This document shows positions 35,322 through 50,245 of a stretch of DNA of 64,000 nt, piece by piece. Source of the stretch: a phage. Position numbers and translations under genes: made by a program. How positions within the stretch are numbered: the first letter of the stretch is position 1; each line of letters opens with the position of its first letter. The DNA is taken from sequence record PV357171.2. The stretch is one strand, 5' to 3'. A model generated the notes under the pieces. It was not told where the DNA came from and ran no database searches. It saw only the letters and a list, made by a program, of their open reading frames with translations.

Positions 35322-36279
35322 ATTTCGCAGCTCTAGCCAAGATTCTATCAATGTCGCCTTGAGATAGCTTCTCGACTTCACGAAAGTAAAGTTCAAGTTC
35401 ACCTAGCATATCAAGATCAACAAGATTTAACTTAGCATCTTTAGTAACTCGATGGTTAATCTTCTTATCTAATAAATCAGAGTCTTTGATAGACTTTAAT
35501 TGAACAACGTCACCAGTAACTTCATAGACTACACGATCATAATCACTAGGTTCCATCTCTTCACCAGCTCCGATTGTTTTACGAATCAGTTGTGGCAAAT
35601 CACCAAGTTCAATCCACTCTACTTTTAATGTATCGGTATCAATGATAAAGCAACCATTTGTACCTTTTGTGCGTTCTCTATGGAACGATGTAGTTAATGG
35701 AGACCCTGGGTAGAGGAGTCTAGTAGATCCGATAGTCTGGCTATTAGTATAAGAATGTAAATCGCCAGCAATTACAGTATCATAACAGTTGTACTTAGTT
35801 AGATCAATTTCTGGTTTTACATGTGGAGGGATTTCACCACGAACATGCGTGAAACATAGTTTTGATTCAGATGGTTTCCACTTAGACTTATGGATTTCAT
35901 CATATGGAACAATATCAAATTCAGGGGAACGATATGGTTTGGTAATTACTTCCCACTTACCACTCGTTACTTTATTAATAACTCCTGCATAATGATATAA
36001 ACATGAAATGGTTTTAGTTAACATTTCATGATTTCCAGTAAAGATTTTGCCTGGGTGGTCAAGTCTTGACATGAACTGTTCAAGCAGTTCTATTTCTTCT
36101 GACGACGGGTCGGCAACATCAAGTATATCACCACCAGCAATATGAAGATCACAGTTATGATTATGGAATATATCATTTAACCGTTCTCCTAGCATTAGGA
36201 AGCGACGCTTCTGCCATTCCTTTGGAACTTTATCTTGTCCTAGTTTGATATGATGATCAGCACTAAATAATATTCTCAT
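35302..36279 (-). CDS. SbcD/Mre11-like nuclease (D12-like)
   Basis: Metallophosphatase motifs (SADHH, GDILD, GNHE-like). Confidence 0.75.
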   Translation of the reverse strand: MRILFSADHHIKLGQDKVPKEWQKRRFLMLGERLNDIFHNHNCDLHIAGGDILDVADPSSEEIELLEQFMSRLDHPGKIFTGNHEMLTKTISCLYHYAGVINKVTSGKWEVITKPYRSPEFDIVPYDEIHKSKWKPSESKLCFTHVRGEIPPHVKPEIDLTKYNCYDTVIAGDLHSYTNSQTIGSTRLLYPGSPLTTSFHRERTKGTNGCFIIDTDTLKVEWIELGDLPQLIRKTIGAGEEMEPSDYDRVVYEVTGDVVQLKSIKDSDLLDKKINHRVTKDAKLNLVDLDMLGELELYFREVEKLSQGDIDRILARAAKYVKDYN

Positions 36280-36282
36280 TGG

Positions 36283-36306
36283 TTAAAAAGAAAGGGGCCG
36301 AAGCCC
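36283..36306 (-). terminator. stem-loop GGGGC-CGAA-GCCCC with U-tract on minus strand
   Basis: Read from sequence. Confidence 0.6.
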
Positions 36307-36315
36307 CTCTATTTA

Positions 36316-37089
36316 TTAGTCGTCCAGATCGCTTGCAGCTTCTGTGTCAATACCTTTCTGGGAGCCTGCATTGCTATTACCAGATTTGGCATCATCATCT
36401 TTATTCTCACGACCCTCCATGAAGGCTAGAATTGCTTCTTTCTGCTCTTCATAGGTAGGGACCGGATAGGTTTGTTCCAGAGAAGGAACTTTTTCGAACT
36501 TAATGATGTCGCCATCTTCGTCACACATAGCTTCACCGATCAGATCTACATCCGCAGCATATTGCTTAGATTCCGCACTGTTAGGATCTTGCAACTTAAT
36601 CTGGAACTGCATAGCAGCAATCTGCTGTACATCATACTCAGTATCGAAACCTTTACCTTTTTTCTCGATAGAAATATCAATATCAAACGGAGTTGCCAGG
36701 CTCAACTGCTTCATGATAGACTGGATGCCTTTCAGAATAGTAGCCTTGACTTCCATTACTTTCAGTTTGTTATCAGAACGGTCAATAACAAAAGCGATAT
36801 AGTTTTTCTTCGGTTTCAGCGGAACACGATTACCATCTTTATCCAGCTCTTTCTCGAAGAAGCCCATCTCATGAACCGGATCAGCTTTACCACGAACAAA
36901 GCTCTCTTTGTCACGGTTAAAACGGAGACATTCGAAAGGAGCTACGCTACCCTCTTTATTAGTCAGCCAATAGACATAACGTGGAAGAACACCAGAAACG
37001 ATACGAACACGAGTGATACCGTTGTTGAACTTCAGGAATTCGATTTTATCGTTAGAACCGCCAGTAGTTTCGCCCCAAGACTTAGCCAT
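36316..37089 (-). CDS. putative ssDNA-binding protein (acidic C-terminal tail)
   Basis: 257 aa; C-terminus ...DTEAASDLDD typical of SSB tails; position in replication module. Confidence 0.35.
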   Translation of the reverse strand: MAKSWGETTGGSNDKIEFLKFNNGITRVRIVSGVLPRYVYWLTNKEGSVAPFECLRFNRDKESFVRGKADPVHEMGFFEKELDKDGNRVPLKPKKNYIAFVIDRSDNKLKVMEVKATILKGIQSIMKQLSLATPFDIDISIEKKGKGFDTEYDVQQIAAMQFQIKLQDPNSAESKQYAADVDLIGEAMCDEDGDIIKFEKVPSLEQTYPVPTYEEQKEAILAFMEGRENKDDDAKSGNSNAGSQKGIDTEAASDLDD

Positions 37090-37366
37090 ATTTTATTTCC
37101 TCTTTAAAGATTAATTTCGATTTGTTAATTGCGATTAGTGGGTTAGTGTCGATTACTAAACGTGGTATCCATACTGGAACATATTGCATGTCCAAGCTAG
37201 GATCGTTTGTAAACTTGTATTCGGCATAATTTCGTAGACTTAAAATTCCTAGATATTCTGCCAGTTGTCTATTAGACAATTTATTTGGATTATCAACTAT
37301 CGTTGATTCATTCAAAATGAATGAGGAACCTACCAATAATTGGTGAGCATCAGGCTCTGTAAGCAT
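37082..37366 (-). CDS. hypothetical protein (94 aa)
   Basis: ORF track; no SD recognised. Confidence 0.3.
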   Translation of the reverse strand: MLTEPDAHQLLVGSSFILNESTIVDNPNKLSNRQLAEYLGILSLRNYAEYKFTNDPSLDMQYVPVWIPRLVIDTNPLIAINKSKLIFKEEIKYG

Positions 37367-37473
37367 TCTTTTGAATAGCTTAATAATTAGGTCGGAATTT
37401 CCTCTAGCTAGTAAGTATAGCTTTTCATAATCGAAGAATTTAATTTTTGTTTTCTCCTCGAATTTATGTATAT

Positions 37474-37503
37474 ATTATACTAGATTTCGAGAGAATTTAG
37501 CAA
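37474..37503 (-). promoter_or_regulatory. T5-type early promoter copy (minus strand)
   Basis: TATAAT and TTGCTA-like hexamers; conserved downstream AAATTCGAGGAGA. Confidence 0.5.
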
Positions 37504-37574
37504 CTAAAATTTTTATTTTTCTGCTTCGGACTTTCTTATCAATCCGAAACTTTCTCTCTCAAATTTATGTATAT

Positions 37575-37603
37575 ATTATACATCATTTATGAGCTGTTGC
37601 CAA
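37575..37603 (-). promoter_or_regulatory. second T5-type early promoter copy overlapping 3' end of helicase gene
   Basis: Near-duplicate of the downstream copy; followed by stem-loop at ~37517..37545. Confidence 0.4.
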
Positions 37604-38939
37604 ATGCAATTTTAGCTAATTGAACTGCTTTCTCCGGAGTCATGGTAATAGTTTTCCACCCGTTGTTACGATATACTGCCATACGTCCAGAAGCCTGTCT
37701 TAGTCCAGTACCACCTTTCATAATTAGATCTACAACAATAGGGTCGAGTTTACCCTCGACAATACGTTGAACACGTCCTGCAAGCTGTTCAATAAGAGAT
37801 TCATTATTAATAAGACTTCCCATTATTAAACAAGATAGCTCATTAAGGGAAATACCTTCAGAGAAGATACTCTGAGCTGCTGCAAGTACACAAGGTCCAC
37901 CTTTTGCTATATCTTCCTGGATTTTTAATCGGTCATCCAAGTGGGTTGCCCCTATAATTTCATATGTTGTAACACCACGCTGTGTAAGAGCTTCTAGTAC
38001 TGTTTGGATTAACTCTGTTCTATCACTTACAATGAGTACTTTATGTCCCATATTCACGTATAAATGTGCCAGGTTTATAATGGTCTCTCGATATTCAGGA
38101 TGGTTGTACACATCATTAGCACGTAACGCCCATGGTACGTTTTGGTTTCCTGATAATTCAACAGGCACGGAGTACCTATGGATTGTAGGTGCAACAGTAT
38201 TATTAACCGGCGGACTAAATATCTTATATCCAAAGAAATCTTTGAACATAACTTGTAGACCATCTTTACGTTTTAATGTTCCAGATAGTCCAATCTTATA
38301 GCGAGCACATGATATTTCTAGGAAGTTAGTGAAAGTTGTAGCCACACAATGGTGAACTTCATCAACTATAACAGTACCGAATACTTTAGAAAGATTATTC
38401 GCATGTTTATTCACTGTTTGAATATTACTGACCACAATTGGTGGATCAATATTGTATTTCCCAGAACCTATGATACCCGGTTCAAACCCAAACCATTTAC
38501 GAACTTCTGCCGCCCACATTTCACGAATAGATGTGTTAGTACAAATTACTAAAGTTTTCTGGCCAAATTTATACGCAAGTGCAAGGGCTAGGATAGTTTT
38601 ACCAAATCCAGGTTTACCATTAATAATACAGGTATCATCGCATTCTTCGTATATTGGAAGCTGATCTTCTTCACGCAGTTTGAACTTAGGTTTTGGTATA
38701 TCTACCGGAGCTAGTGTGCGTTTATCAACTAATTCGTATTTTACTCCTTTAGCATCTAGTAAGTCTAGACGTGTAATAGGAATCCACTTAATCTCTTTGG
38801 CAACAACACCACTATTCTTATACATAATAGGGTATTTACTAGTCATTGTCTCAATGTGATAAGTAGTTTGCTTACTACAATAATCCCAAAGTTCATCATC
38901 GGGCTTGAAATAGGCTTTATTAGATATAACAACCTTCAT
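37587..38939 (-). CDS. SF2 DNA helicase (D10-like)
   Basis: Walker A GKPGFGKT; DEVH box VIVDEVHH. Confidence 0.75.
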   Translation of the reverse strand: MKVVISNKAYFKPDDELWDYCSKQTTYHIETMTSKYPIMYKNSGVVAKEIKWIPITRLDLLDAKGVKYELVDKRTLAPVDIPKPKFKLREEDQLPIYEECDDTCIINGKPGFGKTILALALAYKFGQKTLVICTNTSIREMWAAEVRKWFGFEPGIIGSGKYNIDPPIVVSNIQTVNKHANNLSKVFGTVIVDEVHHCVATTFTNFLEISCARYKIGLSGTLKRKDGLQVMFKDFFGYKIFSPPVNNTVAPTIHRYSVPVELSGNQNVPWALRANDVYNHPEYRETIINLAHLYVNMGHKVLIVSDRTELIQTVLEALTQRGVTTYEIIGATHLDDRLKIQEDIAKGGPCVLAAAQSIFSEGISLNELSCLIMGSLINNESLIEQLAGRVQRIVEGKLDPIVVDLIMKGGTGLRQASGRMAVYRNNGWKTITMTPEKAVQLAKIAFGNSS

Positions 38940-39433
38940 AATTTTATTCTAAGTCTAGGAATTTCAGGCTCCTCTTGATGGACTTGATAAATAACAGGGC
39001 TATTATTTACCAGAATATAGCTTATATAAGCTGGAACATAGGATAATACAAATGGATAAGGGACTTTAGCCACATAGCATTGGTATTTTCCGTTATAAAT
39101 TCTAGCTGAATGCAAAACTTTAGAGGTGACAACATCATAGAACGTAGTTTTCTTCCAGTTAATAAGATTTCCATCAGAATCTATAAATTGGCTACGCTTT
39201 GACCCAACTAATTGAGACAACATTGATATTCTGCCCCTAATAGGATAGAGCTTGTAGGGTAATTCCTTCCGTTTCTCAAATAGAATAAGCCTACGTTGAG
39301 AAAACGTGCCAGGCAACTTCCTGTTATCTAGCACATATTTATTATACCTTGTTGTAATTACGGAATAATCACCTTCTTGCTCAATTGATACAAACGCCCG
39401 TAAAGCATATACGGGCAATTTGAAATCAAGCAC
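38936..39433 (-). CDS. hypothetical protein (165 aa)
   Basis: ORF track; coupled to polymerase gene. Confidence 0.35.
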   Translation of the reverse strand: MLDFKLPVYALRAFVSIEQEGDYSVITTRYNKYVLDNRKLPGTFSQRRLILFEKRKELPYKLYPIRGRISMLSQLVGSKRSQFIDSDGNLINWKKTTFYDVVTSKVLHSARIYNGKYQCYVAKVPYPFVLSYVPAYISYILVNNSPVIYQVHQEEPEIPRLRIKL

Positions 39434-41993
39434 CGAGAATCCTTCTCACGTTATCCAAATCTTTACATACAGCAATAAACTTATCATCCTTGTATTTGCT
39501 ATGATCTGGATGCTCTTTATCCATTGCAGCTAGTTTCTTATACTCGAATTCTGCATCAAGTAATACACCCTTGACATAACGAGTATATTCATCATCATCA
39601 ATACAAGCGATTGATGGATGCTGCTTCTTCATCTTACCACAGGAGTAGTCACGAGAACCTCCAGCCTCAGAATCAGAATCAATACCAATCGGACAGCCAG
39701 GAATACTGATACCACGGTCTTTCTGAATATTACGAATCAGGATTTCATTGTATTGGTCGATCAAATCCTCACGAACAATAGCAACTACGGAGTCATGAAC
39801 CAGCATAACAATCTTCATCTCGTGTTCTAAGCCAAGAGAAATGATCTCATTATCTGCATCTACAGCACCTAAAAGGAGACTATCAGAAGAAGCAGACTGA
39901 ATGATTGCGTTAAATCCAGAACGAATTTCTTCACCCTGAACGCCACGGTCTTCGGAGTGGATATTATGCAGACGACGTTTACGACCAAAGTGACTATAGA
40001 TAAATCCATGATTCTTGATCTGATCGTGGCACTTATCAATCCAACGCTTAAGCTGTGGGAATTGACCAAAGTAAGTCTCAATGTACTCTTTAGCATCTGC
40101 AACAGTACATTCAACAAACGGTTCCCCCGTTTTGGCTGCTTGTTCGAGCAATGCTTCGTTAACAGAATGTGCTACTTTAGCCGGGCCAGAACCGTACAAA
40201 ATACCAAAGGTAATTGCCTTAGCTGCCTGACGCAGAGCTGGGAACAGCTTCTTAACATCACGAGGTTCACATTGCAATTTAAATACCATGTGGGCGATGT
40301 TAGAGTGGAAGTCAGGGTATTTATCAGGTTCATTTCTCATGTTGATAAATACTTGTTGCATATTTCTATCACCAGATAGAACAGCAGCATAATAAACTTC
40401 CGCAGTTGTTAAGTCCCATGCGATTACACGGTATCCAGGTGGTGCAACTACACAACCCTTAATGATAGATTCATCACGAGGTAACTGTTGCAGGTTCAGT
40501 TTACCAGAAGAACTCAGACGACCAGAAGTAGTCATATGCTCATGGAAGCCAGTACGAATGCAACCATCAGCATCAATGCTCAGAAGAATCTTCTCAACGT
40601 AAGTAGAGATCAGCTTAGTCAGCTTACGAATCTCTAGTAGGGTCTTAGCAATTGGATGCTGCGTAGACAATTCGTTCAGAGCTTCTGCATCTGTAGAGTC
40701 CGCTCCAGTATCTGTCAATTTACCTGTTGGAGTTAACCCAACATAATCAAACAGAAGAACACGTAGCTGCTTAACAGAGTTTGGGTTAAACGCTTCGTTC
40801 TGGTCTTTCTCTAGCTGAACGACTTCTGGATAAGTATACAGTTTCTCACGAGCTTTATTCAGATTATGGGTTAACTGGTACTGAGCTTCTTTTAAACGAT
40901 CAATAGAAATAGGTACACCACGATCCTCAACACGTTGCAGGAACACGCAACCAGGCATTAGAACATCATAATACAGACTGCAAAGTTTTTCATTCTTCTC
41001 AATTTTTGGTAAGAAGAAGTTGTGCAAACGTATGGTGGCATCGGTATCTTTTGCAGCGTAAGGCCACATAATATCAAACGGAATTAAATCATAGGTGAAA
41101 TCTTCTTTCTTGATTTTATGTGCTTTGCAATAATCCTCCTTGAACTTATCTAGTTCAAAATCATAGTCACCCATATCGGTATACTTCATTGCTAGAGATT
41201 TCAAGCCATGAGTACCACGACGCTCATCTAGAACATAATGCTGCAACATTGTATCATGGAGCCTGCGTTCTTTATGTGCTTTATCAAAAGTAAGTCCCAG
41301 ATGGTACTTATAAAAGTGCATATCAAACTTCAGGTTGTGAAAAACAATAGTGTGGTTTTCACTATCCAGAATTTTCTGGAGATAATATACTGCAACCTCT
41401 GTGAGACAATCAGAATCGATATATACACCCTGATATTCTTGGTGAGACATAGAAACACCAAGCAGATAACCATCTCGACAGTATAGTGCTGAGGTTTCGG
41501 AGTCAAATGCTACAGGTCCGATAACCATATTATACACCATCTTGATATATTCTTCCGCCTCGTCAGGGTCAGTAATAGGACGGTAATCACCAGCTTTTGC
41601 AATCTTCTCACGACCATTGATAATATCGTGGATATTCTCTACTGTTGCATCGAAAACTGGTTTCATTTCAGGTTTAAAGTGTAACTGGGCTGGGCTGATG
41701 CTCGCAATCCAGTTAGCATATCCATTATGCTCTACACGTTTACCAGTATAGTCACCAATGCCTTTCTTACCAGCAAAGTACAGGAAAGGTTCGGCACCTA
41801 CCAGTATAACAAAATCATAATCATTCGGATCAAATGGGTTTTCCGGAGTCCCGATAGTAATATGCTTTTTGAGCAAACGACCGGATAACTTCTCATTACA
41901 CATATGGAATACATCAACTTCCTCGCCGTATAGCTGGAAATGTTTATCGTAACGAGTGTTATTTAGAGCTTTATCAACTACTGCGATTTTCAA
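39426..41993 (-). CDS. DNA polymerase, family A with 3'-5' exonuclease domain
   Basis: 855 aa; motif B-like AKAITFGILYGSG; motif C VHDS; length matches T5 polymerase as I recall. Confidence 0.9.
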   Translation of the reverse strand: MKIAVVDKALNNTRYDKHFQLYGEEVDVFHMCNEKLSGRLLKKHITIGTPENPFDPNDYDFVILVGAEPFLYFAGKKGIGDYTGKRVEHNGYANWIASISPAQLHFKPEMKPVFDATVENIHDIINGREKIAKAGDYRPITDPDEAEEYIKMVYNMVIGPVAFDSETSALYCRDGYLLGVSMSHQEYQGVYIDSDCLTEVAVYYLQKILDSENHTIVFHNLKFDMHFYKYHLGLTFDKAHKERRLHDTMLQHYVLDERRGTHGLKSLAMKYTDMGDYDFELDKFKEDYCKAHKIKKEDFTYDLIPFDIMWPYAAKDTDATIRLHNFFLPKIEKNEKLCSLYYDVLMPGCVFLQRVEDRGVPISIDRLKEAQYQLTHNLNKAREKLYTYPEVVQLEKDQNEAFNPNSVKQLRVLLFDYVGLTPTGKLTDTGADSTDAEALNELSTQHPIAKTLLEIRKLTKLISTYVEKILLSIDADGCIRTGFHEHMTTSGRLSSSGKLNLQQLPRDESIIKGCVVAPPGYRVIAWDLTTAEVYYAAVLSGDRNMQQVFINMRNEPDKYPDFHSNIAHMVFKLQCEPRDVKKLFPALRQAAKAITFGILYGSGPAKVAHSVNEALLEQAAKTGEPFVECTVADAKEYIETYFGQFPQLKRWIDKCHDQIKNHGFIYSHFGRKRRLHNIHSEDRGVQGEEIRSGFNAIIQSASSDSLLLGAVDADNEIISLGLEHEMKIVMLVHDSVVAIVREDLIDQYNEILIRNIQKDRGISIPGCPIGIDSDSEAGGSRDYSCGKMKKQHPSIACIDDDEYTRYVKGVLLDAEFEYKKLAAMDKEHPDHSKYKDDKFIAVCKDLDNVRRILGA

Positions 41994-46067: not shown

Positions 46068-46096
46068 ATTATAGCAAGTATTTAAGCATTTAGCAA
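46068..46096 (-). promoter_or_regulatory. T5-type early promoter inside the ligase A/B spacer
   Basis: TTGCTA-17-TATAAT on minus strand. Confidence 0.55.
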
Positions 46097-46241
46097 CTAC
46101 AATTTTAACTAACTTTGCTTACCCTCGCCATAACTTTCTATCCCTCAACTGAATGATAATAGTATATACCTAAGCGGCGAAAATGTCAATAACCACTTTA
46201 TAATTCCGATATGGTAGATGGGTAGCAAAGGGTTACATATA

Positions 46242-49786: not shown

Positions 49787-50245
49787 TTAATTTGGATAGA
49801 GTTCGGACTTAAAATTAGCCCTAACTTTTTTAGCCTCTTCTATAGTATTGCACTGCTGGTACTTACGAATAGATCCTTTCTGCATTAGCACACAATATTT
49901 ATCGCCCCTCATGTAGATATTAGGCTCGCCCAACTTATTGTCTTTACGCACATTAATATTGTGCATTTGCTTAGATCTATTGGAGTCTTCTAAATTCTCT
50001 ATAAAGTTGCAATCTTTAATCCTGTTTTTGTGGTCTATCTCTTCTGGTATGTACCCCTTATGATATAAGAATACCAGCTGATGCTCTCCCCAGTGCCTAC
50101 GCTTAAACCCTATTCTTATATACCCTTTATGTTTACCCCCGGCAAACTTACCTACTAGACTCTTCTGTCTTGTTTTCTTCCATTTAAGATGGCCTGTTTC
50201 AGGATCATACTCAAAAGCCTCTCTAACCTCTTCCTGTGTTATCAT
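49787..50245 (-). CDS. HNH homing endonuclease
   Basis: YDPETGHLKW N-terminal motif; EIDHKNRIKDCNFIENL HNH core. Confidence 0.7.
   Translation of the reverse strand: MITQEEVREAFEYDPETGHLKWKKTRQKSLVGKFAGGKHKGYIRIGFKRRHWGEHQLVFLYHKGYIPEEIDHKNRIKDCNFIENLEDSNRSKQMHNINVRKDNKLGEPNIYMRGDKYCVLMQKGSIRKYQQCNTIEEAKKVRANFKSELYPN

Follow-up and report, generated by a model that had tools for sequence, protein, structure and literature searches.

Between the helicase gene and the gene that follows it in the phage sequence record PV357171.2, two almost identical units of DNA lie about 100 bp apart with a hairpin between them, and the question is what this arrangement represents. The stretch analysed, called the window below, comprises 64,000 nucleotides and belongs to a T5-like phage (Tequintavirus), with ca 98% identity to T5-like phages. 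Its intergenic region at this locus is identical to that of T5, base for base, and the 321-nt stretch around the repeat contains a single difference, located in the helicase coding part. The comparison covered ca 35 genomes, with 400+ T5-like genomes available. The features needed for the analysis of the repeat are the following:

37587..38939, minus strand: D10-type SF2 helicase gene (ResIII and Helicase_C in Pfam, phrog_16, T5 D10), with its TAA at 37589-37587
37568..37603, minus strand: predicted promoter P31A, with -35 TTGGCA (37603-37598), a 17-nt spacer, -10 TATAAT (37580-37575), ATATAC and the predicted +1 A at 37568; 11/12 consensus
37558..37588, minus strand: upstream repeat copy, in P31A (-10, discriminator and initial transcribed sequence), ATAAATTTGAG
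37504..37522, minus strand: A/T-rich tract AGAAAAATAAAAATTTTAG, directly 5' of the P31B -35, in UP-element position
37467..37503, minus strand: predicted promoter P31B, with -35 TTGCTA (37503-37498), an 18-nt spacer, -10 TATAAT (37479-37474), ATATAC and the predicted +1 A at 37467; 10/12 consensus
37457..37487, minus strand: downstream repeat copy, in P31B (-10, discriminator and initial transcribed sequence), ATAAATTCGAG
36316..37089, minus strand: D11, putative single-strand DNA-binding protein (phrog_1607, E = 1.9e-105; T5 annotation)
36291..36310, minus strand: predicted intrinsic terminator 3' of D11, AGAGGGGCTTCGGCCCCTTT then CTTTTT (scan call; a putative rho-independent terminator in T5)

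The direct repeat (37457-37487 and 37558-37588, minus strand) is 31 nt long, with 87% identity and a start-to-start distance of 101, and the two copies are the same throughout a 20-nt core, which on the minus strand reads GTATAATATATACATAAATT. The near-identical tandem units described in the first-pass annotation are thus real, and so are their minus-strand -10 elements, since TATAAT is present in both copies, each with a good -35 at the right distance. In both cases, the -35 hexamer is near TTGACA/TTGCTT and the -10 is TATAAT, with a spacing of 17 ± 1 bp. Each 31-nt unit is composed of the -10 box, a 6-nt discriminator and a conserved initial transcribed sequence, corresponding to the first ca 11-13 transcribed bases, where the +1 of P31A was assigned by register with P-N25 (6-bp discriminator, PMC12464699). 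The upstream copy had also been described as overlapping the 3' end of the helicase gene. The repeat unit itself does so by 2 nt only; what lies inside the gene, encoded in its last codons, is the -35 of P31A together with the part upstream of it.

A promoter scan of 36200-39600 returned 18 promoter-like sites, compared to 12 expected, with P31A and P31B being two of the top three scores and the top two on the gene strand in these 3.4 kb. The A/T-rich character of the region and the many weak sites in this simple scan could be taken to indicate that the repeat is a chance or low-complexity coincidence without promoter function. However, the two copies match exactly over 20 nt at a distance of 101 bp, and the window contains the 19-mer TATAATATATACATAAATT, with <=3 mismatches allowed, 6 times, always on the minus strand, vs 0.17 expected. 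The sites are furthermore kept across genera and annotated as promoters in T5, and the probability of a coincidence is practically negligible.

The same element is found in T5, where the flanking genes are also the same, namely D10, T5.125 and D11. At this site, the T5 RefSeq record NC_005859 has the features P31A (75467-75541) and P31B (75568-75642), next to which come T5.125, D11 and the terminator, and in the Bf23 record a promoter is predicted at the P31B position too. The tandem promoters are thus already known as features of the T5 reference record, and the repeated unit corresponds to a conserved core of T5 promoters that has long been known, such that the repeat finding in itself is of little weight, being a rediscovery of annotated T5 promoters. 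The T5 record offers no transcript evidence, makes no mention of the hairpin and places the T5.125 start at an internal ATG, and its P31A and P31B features may be predictions themselves. For P31A/P31B, the searchable literature yielded neither primer-extension nor TSS-sequencing data, and searches for TSS or RNA-seq evidence on T5.125 and for TSS maps of T5-like phages likewise gave nothing relevant. We assign a probability of roughly 0.85 to the reading that the two 31-nt units are the cores of tandem co-directional E. coli sigma-70 promoters, T5 P31A and P31B, with predicted starts 101 bp apart. That both fire in vivo, and at exactly these +1 positions, is what we infer from the sequence.

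The proposal of tandem co-directional promoters is supported not only by the identity to P31A/P31B, but also by an architecture in common with the remaining annotated T5 promoters of the window. In the T5-family promoters, the transcribed region ATAAATT(T)GAGAG is conserved besides the hexamers, and the aligned module copies have AAAATT..TTGCTn-17/18-TATAAT-N6-ATAAATT(T)GAGAG in common. The copies in the window include the sites annotated in T5 as P-N25, P-N26 and P-K28a, and every copy is on the minus strand, 5' of minus-strand ORFs, in agreement with the T5 gene map. A second annotated tandem pair exists in T5, P-K28b/a, the members of which are 93 bp apart. The two copies considered here both read TATAAT-ATATAC-ATAAATT(T/C)GAG, matching the T5-type pattern of a 6-nt A/T-rich discriminator and the transcribed region ATAAATTTGAGAG. 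Judged by eye and unscored, both also have an A/T-rich UP-like region at ca -40 to -60, AGAAAAATAAAAATTTTAG in P31B and AGCTAAAATTGCA in P31A, and the AAAATT...TTGCT arrangement of the P31B upstream tract recurs at other T5 promoters. For comparison, the experimentally studied sigma-70 promoter N25 (TTGctt/17/TATAAT) has a 6-bp discriminator, and its UP element, of the canonical kind, is centred at -49 (PMC12464699). Another option considered was AAGTCCGAA as an upstream element common to P31B and P-N25; it was dropped, as there are only two copies, the N25 one is in a coding region, and the count is compatible with chance.

The common discriminator motif of proven T5 early promoters is ATATT (PMC7472727), from which the ATATAC of P31A and P31B deviates by one mismatch, and this counts against the two as typical early promoters. 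ATATAC is found at no other promoter in the window, a restriction that suggests a local duplication or gene conversion. The insertion of a homing endonuclease was also considered as the cause of the duplication and was rejected, because in IrmaTschudi and related Epseptimavirus the helicase 3' end is where the HNH gene sits, 5' of P31A rather than between the two copies.

EPS7, phiR201, Serratia Slocum and Proteus PL1 also have a pair of promoters, ca 100 bp apart, in the interval from the helicase to the T5.125 homologue; in Sugarlandvirus there are three, and in the Vibrio phages the two promoters flank a 132-aa gene. The P31A -35 sequence persists even in genomes whose helicase 3' end was displaced by a homing endonuclease gene, and there it has ceased to be coding sequence. 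In phiR201, Sugarlandvirus and Slocum, the second TATAAT is only 1-4 nt 5' of the start codon, which means that its transcript could not carry that codon, and this makes for a weaker case for the second promoter always serving T5.125. The comparison with relatives, suggested as a check in the first-pass annotation, is favourable to the tandem promoters, which are kept in several Demerecviridae genera, and lends no support to a regulatory RNA, the stem of which varies little and has no compensatory changes.

The Vibrio phages also bring up the possibility that P31A is an orphan promoter, that its 101-nt leader is a relic standing in place of the small gene between the promoters of other Demerecviridae, and that the tandem arrangement only adds transcription. 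The first promoter of pVp-1 and Chester overlaps the stop codon of the helicase, exactly as P31A does, and drives the 132-aa gene (phrog_25412), with the second promoter preceding the T5.125 homologue, and the differing number of modules between the genera points in the same direction. The event could, however, be a gene gain in the Vibrio phages or a loss elsewhere, and the leader does not behave as a decaying sequence. Between the window and an EPS7-like phage, the 74-nt stretch from the P31A -10 to the A-tract has 0/74 differences, whereas the helicase differs by 10.9% and the P31B spacer at 11/28 positions (P ~2e-4), and the spacer is kept at ca 80-100 nt in all enterobacterial genera examined. 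We consider the relic explanation to be unlikely.

A further question is where the gene behind the two promoters starts. Two further features are needed here:

37082..37444, minus strand: T5.125 homologue (phrog_4258), probably 120 aa from ATT 37444-37442; in databases 37082-37366 only, 94 aa, from ATG
37454..37459, minus strand: Shine-Dalgarno sequence GAGGAG, in the P31B conserved transcribed region, 9 nt 5' of the ATT, invariant in the window and in 22/22 T5-clade loci

The downstream gene had been described as starting without an SD. This is true only of ATG 37366, which is probably the wrong start, as ATT 37444 sits 9 nt after GAGGAG, and the apparent lack would then be due to a start-site error in the T5.125 annotation. 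The proposed start is 26 codons 5' of the annotated ATG, and the codon at that position is ATG in 8 loci, among them those of Epseptimavirus and Sugarlandvirus, and ATT in the window, T5, Bf23 and 22/22 further T5-clade loci. When the frame is read from ATT 37444, residues 1-120 fall on positions 1-120 of the 120-position phrog_4258 profile with E = 3.6e-62. The N-terminal 26 residues are kept in EPS7, phiR201 and Spivey, and the match to the homologues of Proteus, Serratia and Vibrio phages begins at residue 1 or 4. Within the ATT clade, the extension shows 5 distinct synonymous vs 1 non-synonymous changes and 0 frameshifts (naive binomial P = 0.005, from six substitutions only), and between T5 and EPS7 there are 15 nt differences in codons 2-26, yet 21/25 residues are identical.

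On the basis of these sequence comparisons, it is fairly probable that translation of T5.125 starts at the non-canonical AUU at 37444 and not at the annotated internal ATG, and the start appears to be misannotated across the T5 clade in the records examined. Records from 132 contigs contain exactly the 94-aa short form, while the 120-aa form was absent from the sequence collection searched and the probable AUU start was in no record checked. A single NCBI record, the name of which is that of a TPA E. coli entry, labels the same ORF "partial" and includes the extension. A conserved AUU start, if used, would provide, in a model phage, a rare example of non-canonical initiation that is accessible to experiment.

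Initiation at AUU is rare, and phages of the T5 clade could in fact start the protein at the internal ATG 37366.

The sequence between the two promoters contains one more feature:

37523..37550, minus strand: hairpin in the P31A-specific leader, at ca +19 to +46 of the predicted P31A transcript, with arms 37550-37541/37532-37523 and loop 37540-37533

A hairpin lacking a U-tract had been noted between the copies, and it is indeed there, longer than described. In RNA of the sense strand, the stem comprises 10 pairs, two of them G-U (GUUUCGGAUU / AGUCCGAAGC), and the loop 8 nt, and because of the two G-U pairs the full stem can form only in that strand. The free energy is -14 kcal/mol, compared to -2.6 ± 1.6 for shuffles (z = -7.2). 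There is no U-tract after it, AGAAAAAUAAAAAUUUU being the sequence that follows, and the terminator scan gave no call there. The hairpin is not a terminator.

The hairpin is identical in T5 and an EPS7-like phage, and also in phiR201, bar the outermost pairs. In all three, the loop is as conserved as the stem. Across 8 distinct sequences, the stem pairs vary little: no pair is changed on both sides, 3 changes on one side preserve the pairing, and 4 cells are unpaired, that of phiR201 possibly as an alignment effect. Pair-breaking changes occur in three isolates. Further away, the Sugarlandvirus spacer has a hairpin with the same 3' arm and a different 5' arm and loop, Proteus PL1 has a different 16-bp stem, and the Slocum spacer has no significant structure (z = -1.25).

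The suggestion in the first-pass annotation that P31A might produce a short regulatory RNA can be assessed on this basis. Such a non-coding RNA would have its 3' end at the hairpin or just beyond it, created either by termination or by RNase E cutting within the A/U tract, and would be distinct from the P31B mRNA. The hairpin is very stable for its composition, its full stem is confined to the sense RNA, the leader is unchanged between T5 and EPS7-like phages, hairpins are found also in the Sugarlandvirus and PL1 spacers, and the A/U-rich single strand after the stem in our view resembles an RNase E substrate. Against this stand the missing U-tract and terminator call, the lack of compensatory changes together with the 4 unpaired cells, and the unstructured Slocum spacer. 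The search in Rfam 15 gave no family match (E <= 10); the best hits had 14-19 bits vs gathering values of 48-100, with E >= 0.29. The conservation 3' of the stem is, moreover, accounted for by the UP-like element and the -35 of P31B. A short regulatory RNA is thus very unlikely, and this part of the earlier proposal is not supported.

The fact that the loop is as conserved as the stem fits better with sequence recognition than with a pure RNA structure. The hairpin and A-tract could act as DNA, in the form of an upstream activating or repressing site for P31B or P31A that is bound by the alpha-CTD of RNA polymerase and/or a phage early-to-late switch protein, with the palindrome being either incidental or the protein site. 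The 26-mer GAAAGTCCGAAGCAGAAAAATAAAAA, located at ca -68 to -43 of P31B, is identical in T5 and Sugarlandvirus, the flanking proteins of which are only 67% identical, and judging from the coordinates the hairpin DNA would lie between the expected polymerase footprints at both promoters. However, the half-site spacing of the palindrome goes from 12 nt to 3 nt in Sugarlandvirus, which is hard to square with a dimeric DNA-binding protein, and the window has no second copy of the element. The 9-mer in common with the P-N25 upstream region is inside coding sequence and compatible with chance (5/100 shuffles). We regard a DNA site as quite unlikely.

Other roles of the leader were also tried and dropped. 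A small ORF follows GAGAGAG (TTG-ATA-AGA-AAG-TCC-GAA-GCA-GAA-AAA-TAA, 9 aa), the frame and length of which are not preserved in EPS7, Sugarlandvirus, Slocum and PL1. Sequestration of the SD in long transcripts only was considered because UUCUCUCGAA paired with the SD in an initial fold; once sequence further downstream was added, the unpaired probability of the SD/start in T5 is 0.61 in the long vs 0.61 in the short transcript, and the values are inconsistent among the other clades. A conserved helix that would close the P31A transcribed region onto the P31B spacer has z = -3.6 in T5 and PL1 and is not significant in EPS7-like phages, phiR201, Sugarlandvirus and Slocum; pairing nearly as strong is obtained with a spacer from an unrelated T5 promoter (-10.8 vs -11.7 kcal/mol).

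The hairpin could instead be a leader structure that affects the stability or processing of the long mRNA, which we put forward only tentatively. In another reading, the P31A leader would be a cis-acting RNA operator of T5.125-D11, made up of the invariant hairpin and a long, A/U-rich and mostly unstructured tract leading into the RBS, possibly with D11 autoregulation as for T4 gene 32, and acting in concert with an IF3-sensitive AUU start that is fixed in the sampled T5-clade genomes. This reading is highly improbable; if true, the two promoters would give one regulated and one unregulated mRNA for the same genes. The conserved leader is of relevance to T5 promoter engineering and to expression studies of the putative ssDNA-binding protein.

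With P31A and P31B as tandem promoters, the following picture can be proposed. Located at the end of the pol-T5.123-D10 helicase block, they would add strong starts for the two-gene unit T5.125-D11, and their transcripts would end at the predicted terminator at 36310-36291. D11 is plausibly required in larger amounts than the upstream enzymes. The 3' half of the inter-promoter sequence would provide the A/T-rich UP-like element and the -35 of P31B, and the P31B repeat copy would supply the GAGGAG ribosome-binding site for T5.125. The stable hairpin in the 5' half would be present only in the longer P31A transcripts and in read-through transcripts. Graded expression from the two promoters, as the first-pass annotation proposed, is a reasonable expectation.

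Tandem promoters are well known from other systems, such as E. coli rrn P1-P2, at a distance of ca 120 bp, and, in phage T7, the early promoters A1-A2-A3 and phi1.1A/phi1.1B. The likeness is that the promoters are co-directional and ca 100 bp apart, serve one unit, and have an extra leader from the upstream one and an A/T-rich element at the downstream one. There is, however, no sequence relation to these pairs, and differential regulation (rrn) or origin function (T7 phi1.1A/B) has no support here. With intrinsic terminators and attenuators, the hairpin, the stem of which has 10 bp, shares a stable G+C-containing stem-loop early in the transcript; it differs in that the stem is followed by AGAAAAAUAAAAA, with no U run 0-2 nt after it. 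The E. coli genes infC and pcnB are AUU-initiated, and an AUU behind a strong SD is an IF3-sensitive configuration. ATT 37444, if used, would be a non-canonical AUU behind a strong SD, as in infC and pcnB, although no autoregulatory logic is known for T5.125.

The closest relatives are found within T5. P-N25, P-N26 and P-K28a/b, strong T5 sigma-70 promoters of the Bujard-laboratory promoter set, have in common with P31A and P31B the -35 TTGCTn, a 17-18 nt spacer, TATAAT, a 6-nt A/T-rich discriminator, an A/T-rich upstream region, and the transcribed sequence ATAAATTTGAGAGAG. The P-K28b/a pair differs in that no comparable hairpin is present between its members (z = -1.0). The agreement extends into the transcript, as the first 15 transcribed bases of P31A match those of the N25 copy in the window.

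The window differs from the T5 RefSeq NC_005859 by 1 base over the 321 nt around the finding, this difference lying within the helicase coding part, and the alignment shows no difference in the intergenic region. With a 1.2-kb query covering the finding, 442 phage records matched (best ca 98%), all of them T5-like Demerecviridae. The relevant features, in gene order, are:

39426-41993, minus strand, DNA polymerase
between DNA polymerase and D10 helicase, minus strand, ORF of 165 aa
37587-38939, minus strand, D10 SF2 helicase (ResIII and Helicase_C)
37558-37588, minus strand, repeat copy carrying the P31A −10
37457-37487, minus strand, repeat copy carrying the P31B −10
between D10 helicase and D11, minus strand, T5.125 homologue; probable extended ORF 37082-37444, with ATT at 37442-37444, 26 codons upstream of the ATG annotated in the T5 clade
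36316-37089, minus strand, D11 (phrog_1607, annotated as single-strand DNA-binding protein)
36310-36291, minus strand, terminator after D11

The first-pass annotation described two near-identical units carrying −10 elements and read them as tandem promoters. The repeat finder indeed gives two 31-nt copies, 87% identical, with a spacing of 101 and an exact 20-mer as their common core. TATAAT is present in both, each with a good −35 element (TTGGCA at 17 nt for P31A, TTGCTA at 18 nt for P31B), and the hexamers score 11/12 and 10/12, respectively, against the consensus. These are the top two gene-strand promoter sites across the scanned 3.4 kb. In the T5 RefSeq, exactly these sites are features, the promoters P31A and P31B; T5.125, D11 and a putative terminator come after them. 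In the Bf23 record, an early promoter is predicted where P31B lies. The tandem-promoter reading is thus correct, yet already annotated in the T5 reference, and the interest is limited to two by-products: the leader, whose conservation is unusual, and the AUU codon as the probable start of T5.125. As for the proposed overlap with the helicase gene, the repeat unit itself shares just two stop-codon bases with it, while the −35 and upstream part of P31A do lie inside the gene.

Two strong tandem sigma-70 promoters would add to the transcription that T5.125-D11 receives by read-through from the pol-D10 block, and this unit would end at the terminator after D11. The rationale may be that a putative ssDNA-binding protein is in higher demand than the upstream enzymes.

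The gene downstream of P31B was said to lack an SD at its start, which is annotated at ATG 37366 to give 94 aa. This absence reflects a probable mis-annotation; GAGGAG inside the P31B repeat copy is the SD. The frame is open upstream to 37477; with 37444 as its start, the ORF aligns with positions 1-120 of the 120-position phrog_4258 profile (E = 3.6e-62). The full protein of 117-120 aa is annotated in EPS7, Spivey, Slocum, PL1 and Chester, and tblastn matches in distant phages begin at residue 1-4. At the homologous start position there is ATG in 8 loci (including Epseptimavirus and Sugarlandvirus) and ATT in the window and 22/22 T5-clade loci, all of the latter with an invariant GAGGAG 9 nt before the ATT. 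In the ATT clade, 5 distinct synonymous changes, 1 non-synonymous change and 0 frameshifts are seen in the 78-nt extension (naive binomial P = 0.005). In databases the exact 94-aa form is widespread; the 120-aa T5-clade form is absent from a collection of 15 billion proteins, and in one record, named as a TPA E. coli entry from NCBI, the ORF includes the extension and is labelled "partial". We consider AUU to be the probable start of T5.125, at roughly two chances in three. In the predicted long and short transcripts, codons 3-5 (UUCUUCGA) are base-paired to the SD region UCGAGGAG (37462-37432, minus strand), and the AUU codon sits in a 15-nt loop; this modelled pairing is a possible translational feature.

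The stem-loop without a U-tract described between the promoters is present and stronger than described. In the sense-strand RNA it has ten pairs, including two G-U, and an 8-nt loop (−14 kcal mol−1, z = −7.2). No U-tract follows it, the terminator scan makes no call there, and an Rfam search matched nothing, which leaves the suggested short regulatory RNA, as a terminated product, unsupported. Differences between the window and one EPS7-like phage are distributed as follows:

helicase, 10.9%
P31A −10 to the end of the A-tract, 0/74
P31B −35/−10 spacer region, 11/28
D11, 12.9%

At the background rate, 0/74 has P ~2e-4. By this comparison the leader between the promoters is unusually conserved, and we conclude that the 3′ half of the conserved island is constrained as a putative P31B upstream element and −35 region. 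Sugarlandvirus has the 26-mer GAAAGTCCGAAGCAGAAAAATAAAAA unchanged; its hairpin, with a different 5′ arm, has a stem of 7 bp and a loop of 3 nt. In PL1 the inter-promoter spacer contains a 16-bp hairpin that is unrelated (z = −6.5), and in Slocum it contains no notable one (z = −1.25). Across the stem pairs of 8 distinct variants (T5, EPS7 and phiR201), no change is compensatory; 3 one-sided changes preserve the pair, and 4 cells are unpaired. In the leader specific to P31A, the presence of a hairpin is probably favoured, and it may have a function.

Several other options were considered and rejected: a leader peptide, which is not conserved; SD masking in long transcripts alone, as long and short ones do not differ in T5; and a conserved closing helix, which reaches significance in T5 and PL1 alone. 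The 9-mer AAGTCCGAA has just two copies in the window (37525-37533 and 49802-49810, both minus strand), ca 60 nt upstream of the start sites of the strong promoters P31B and P-N25. As an element common to the two it was also rejected, being compatible with chance: its count is reached in 5/100 shuffles, and the N25 copy lies within a coding region.

The comparison with relatives proposed in the first-pass annotation finds the promoter layout in EPS7-like phages, phiR201, Sugarlandvirus, Slocum, PL1 and Vibrio phages; the tandem layout goes back further than the near-identity of its copies. Both promoters and the hairpin seen in the window are found in EPS7-like phages. Two complete promoters are present in Proteus phage PL1, and phiR201 and Serratia phage Slocum have two, ca 90-100 bp apart. 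Sugarlandvirus has three; in Spivey (L008 1340-1562) the promoter-like modules have TATAAT at 1365, 1457 and 1557 (spacing 92 and 100 bp), with the conserved hairpin between the second and third. After the last TATAAT in phiR201, Sugarlandvirus and Slocum, 25-28 nt of transcribed region and the SD are missing, and the start codon of the T5.125 homologue (ATG or TTG) lies 1-4 nt past it:

L008 1557-1569, Spivey, last TATAAT to start codon
L006 1072-1081, phiR201, the same
L039 693-703, Slocum, the same

A transcript from the last promoter could therefore not carry the start codon in these phages, and no good SD for the homologue is visible at the three loci. In the Vibrio phages pVp-1 and Chester, the first promoter overlaps the helicase stop, like in T5, and a 132-aa gene (phrog_25412; L041 245-643 and L042 233-643, respectively) lies between the first and second promoters; it was either lost in enterobacterial lineages or inserted between tandem promoters. 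Some Epseptimavirus have the last helicase codons replaced by a homing endonuclease gene of the HNH type, inserted at the D10 helicase 3′ end (Escherichia phage IrmaTschudi, L003 770-1300; also L030 and L035). The P31A −35/−10 is intact downstream of it, and the retention of a −35 sequence that is no longer coding supports the promoter role.

A 19-mer of the repeat occurs, with ≤3 mismatches, 6 times in the 64 kb, all on the minus strand (0.17 expected). The aligned motif copies, three of which are the T5 features P-N25, P-N26 and P-K28a, have in common an A/T-rich upstream region, TTGCTn, 17-18 nt, TATAAT, a 6-nt A/T-rich discriminator and ATAAATT(T)GAGAG. N25, a sigma-70 promoter that has been studied intensively, has TTGctt/17/TATAAT, an UP element and a 6-bp discriminator (PMC12464699), and Klimuk et al. 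describe an ATATT discriminator common to T5 early promoters (PMC7472727). The "30-bp unit" is thus the conserved core of the T5 promoters plus the initial transcribed sequence. The first 15 transcribed bases of P31A match those of the window's N25 copy. The discriminator ATATAC is found in P31A and P31B alone among promoters in the window, which points to gene conversion between the two or to a local duplication. T5 has another annotated tandem pair, P-K28b/P-K28a, 93 bp apart and located upstream of ligB (46068-46189, minus strand):

46189-46184 (TTGACA) and 46166-46161 (TATACT), minus strand, P-K28b
46073-46068 (TATAAT), minus strand, P-K28a

In contrast to the spacer of this pair, which is without a notable hairpin (z = −1.0), the one between P31A and P31B contains a hairpin.
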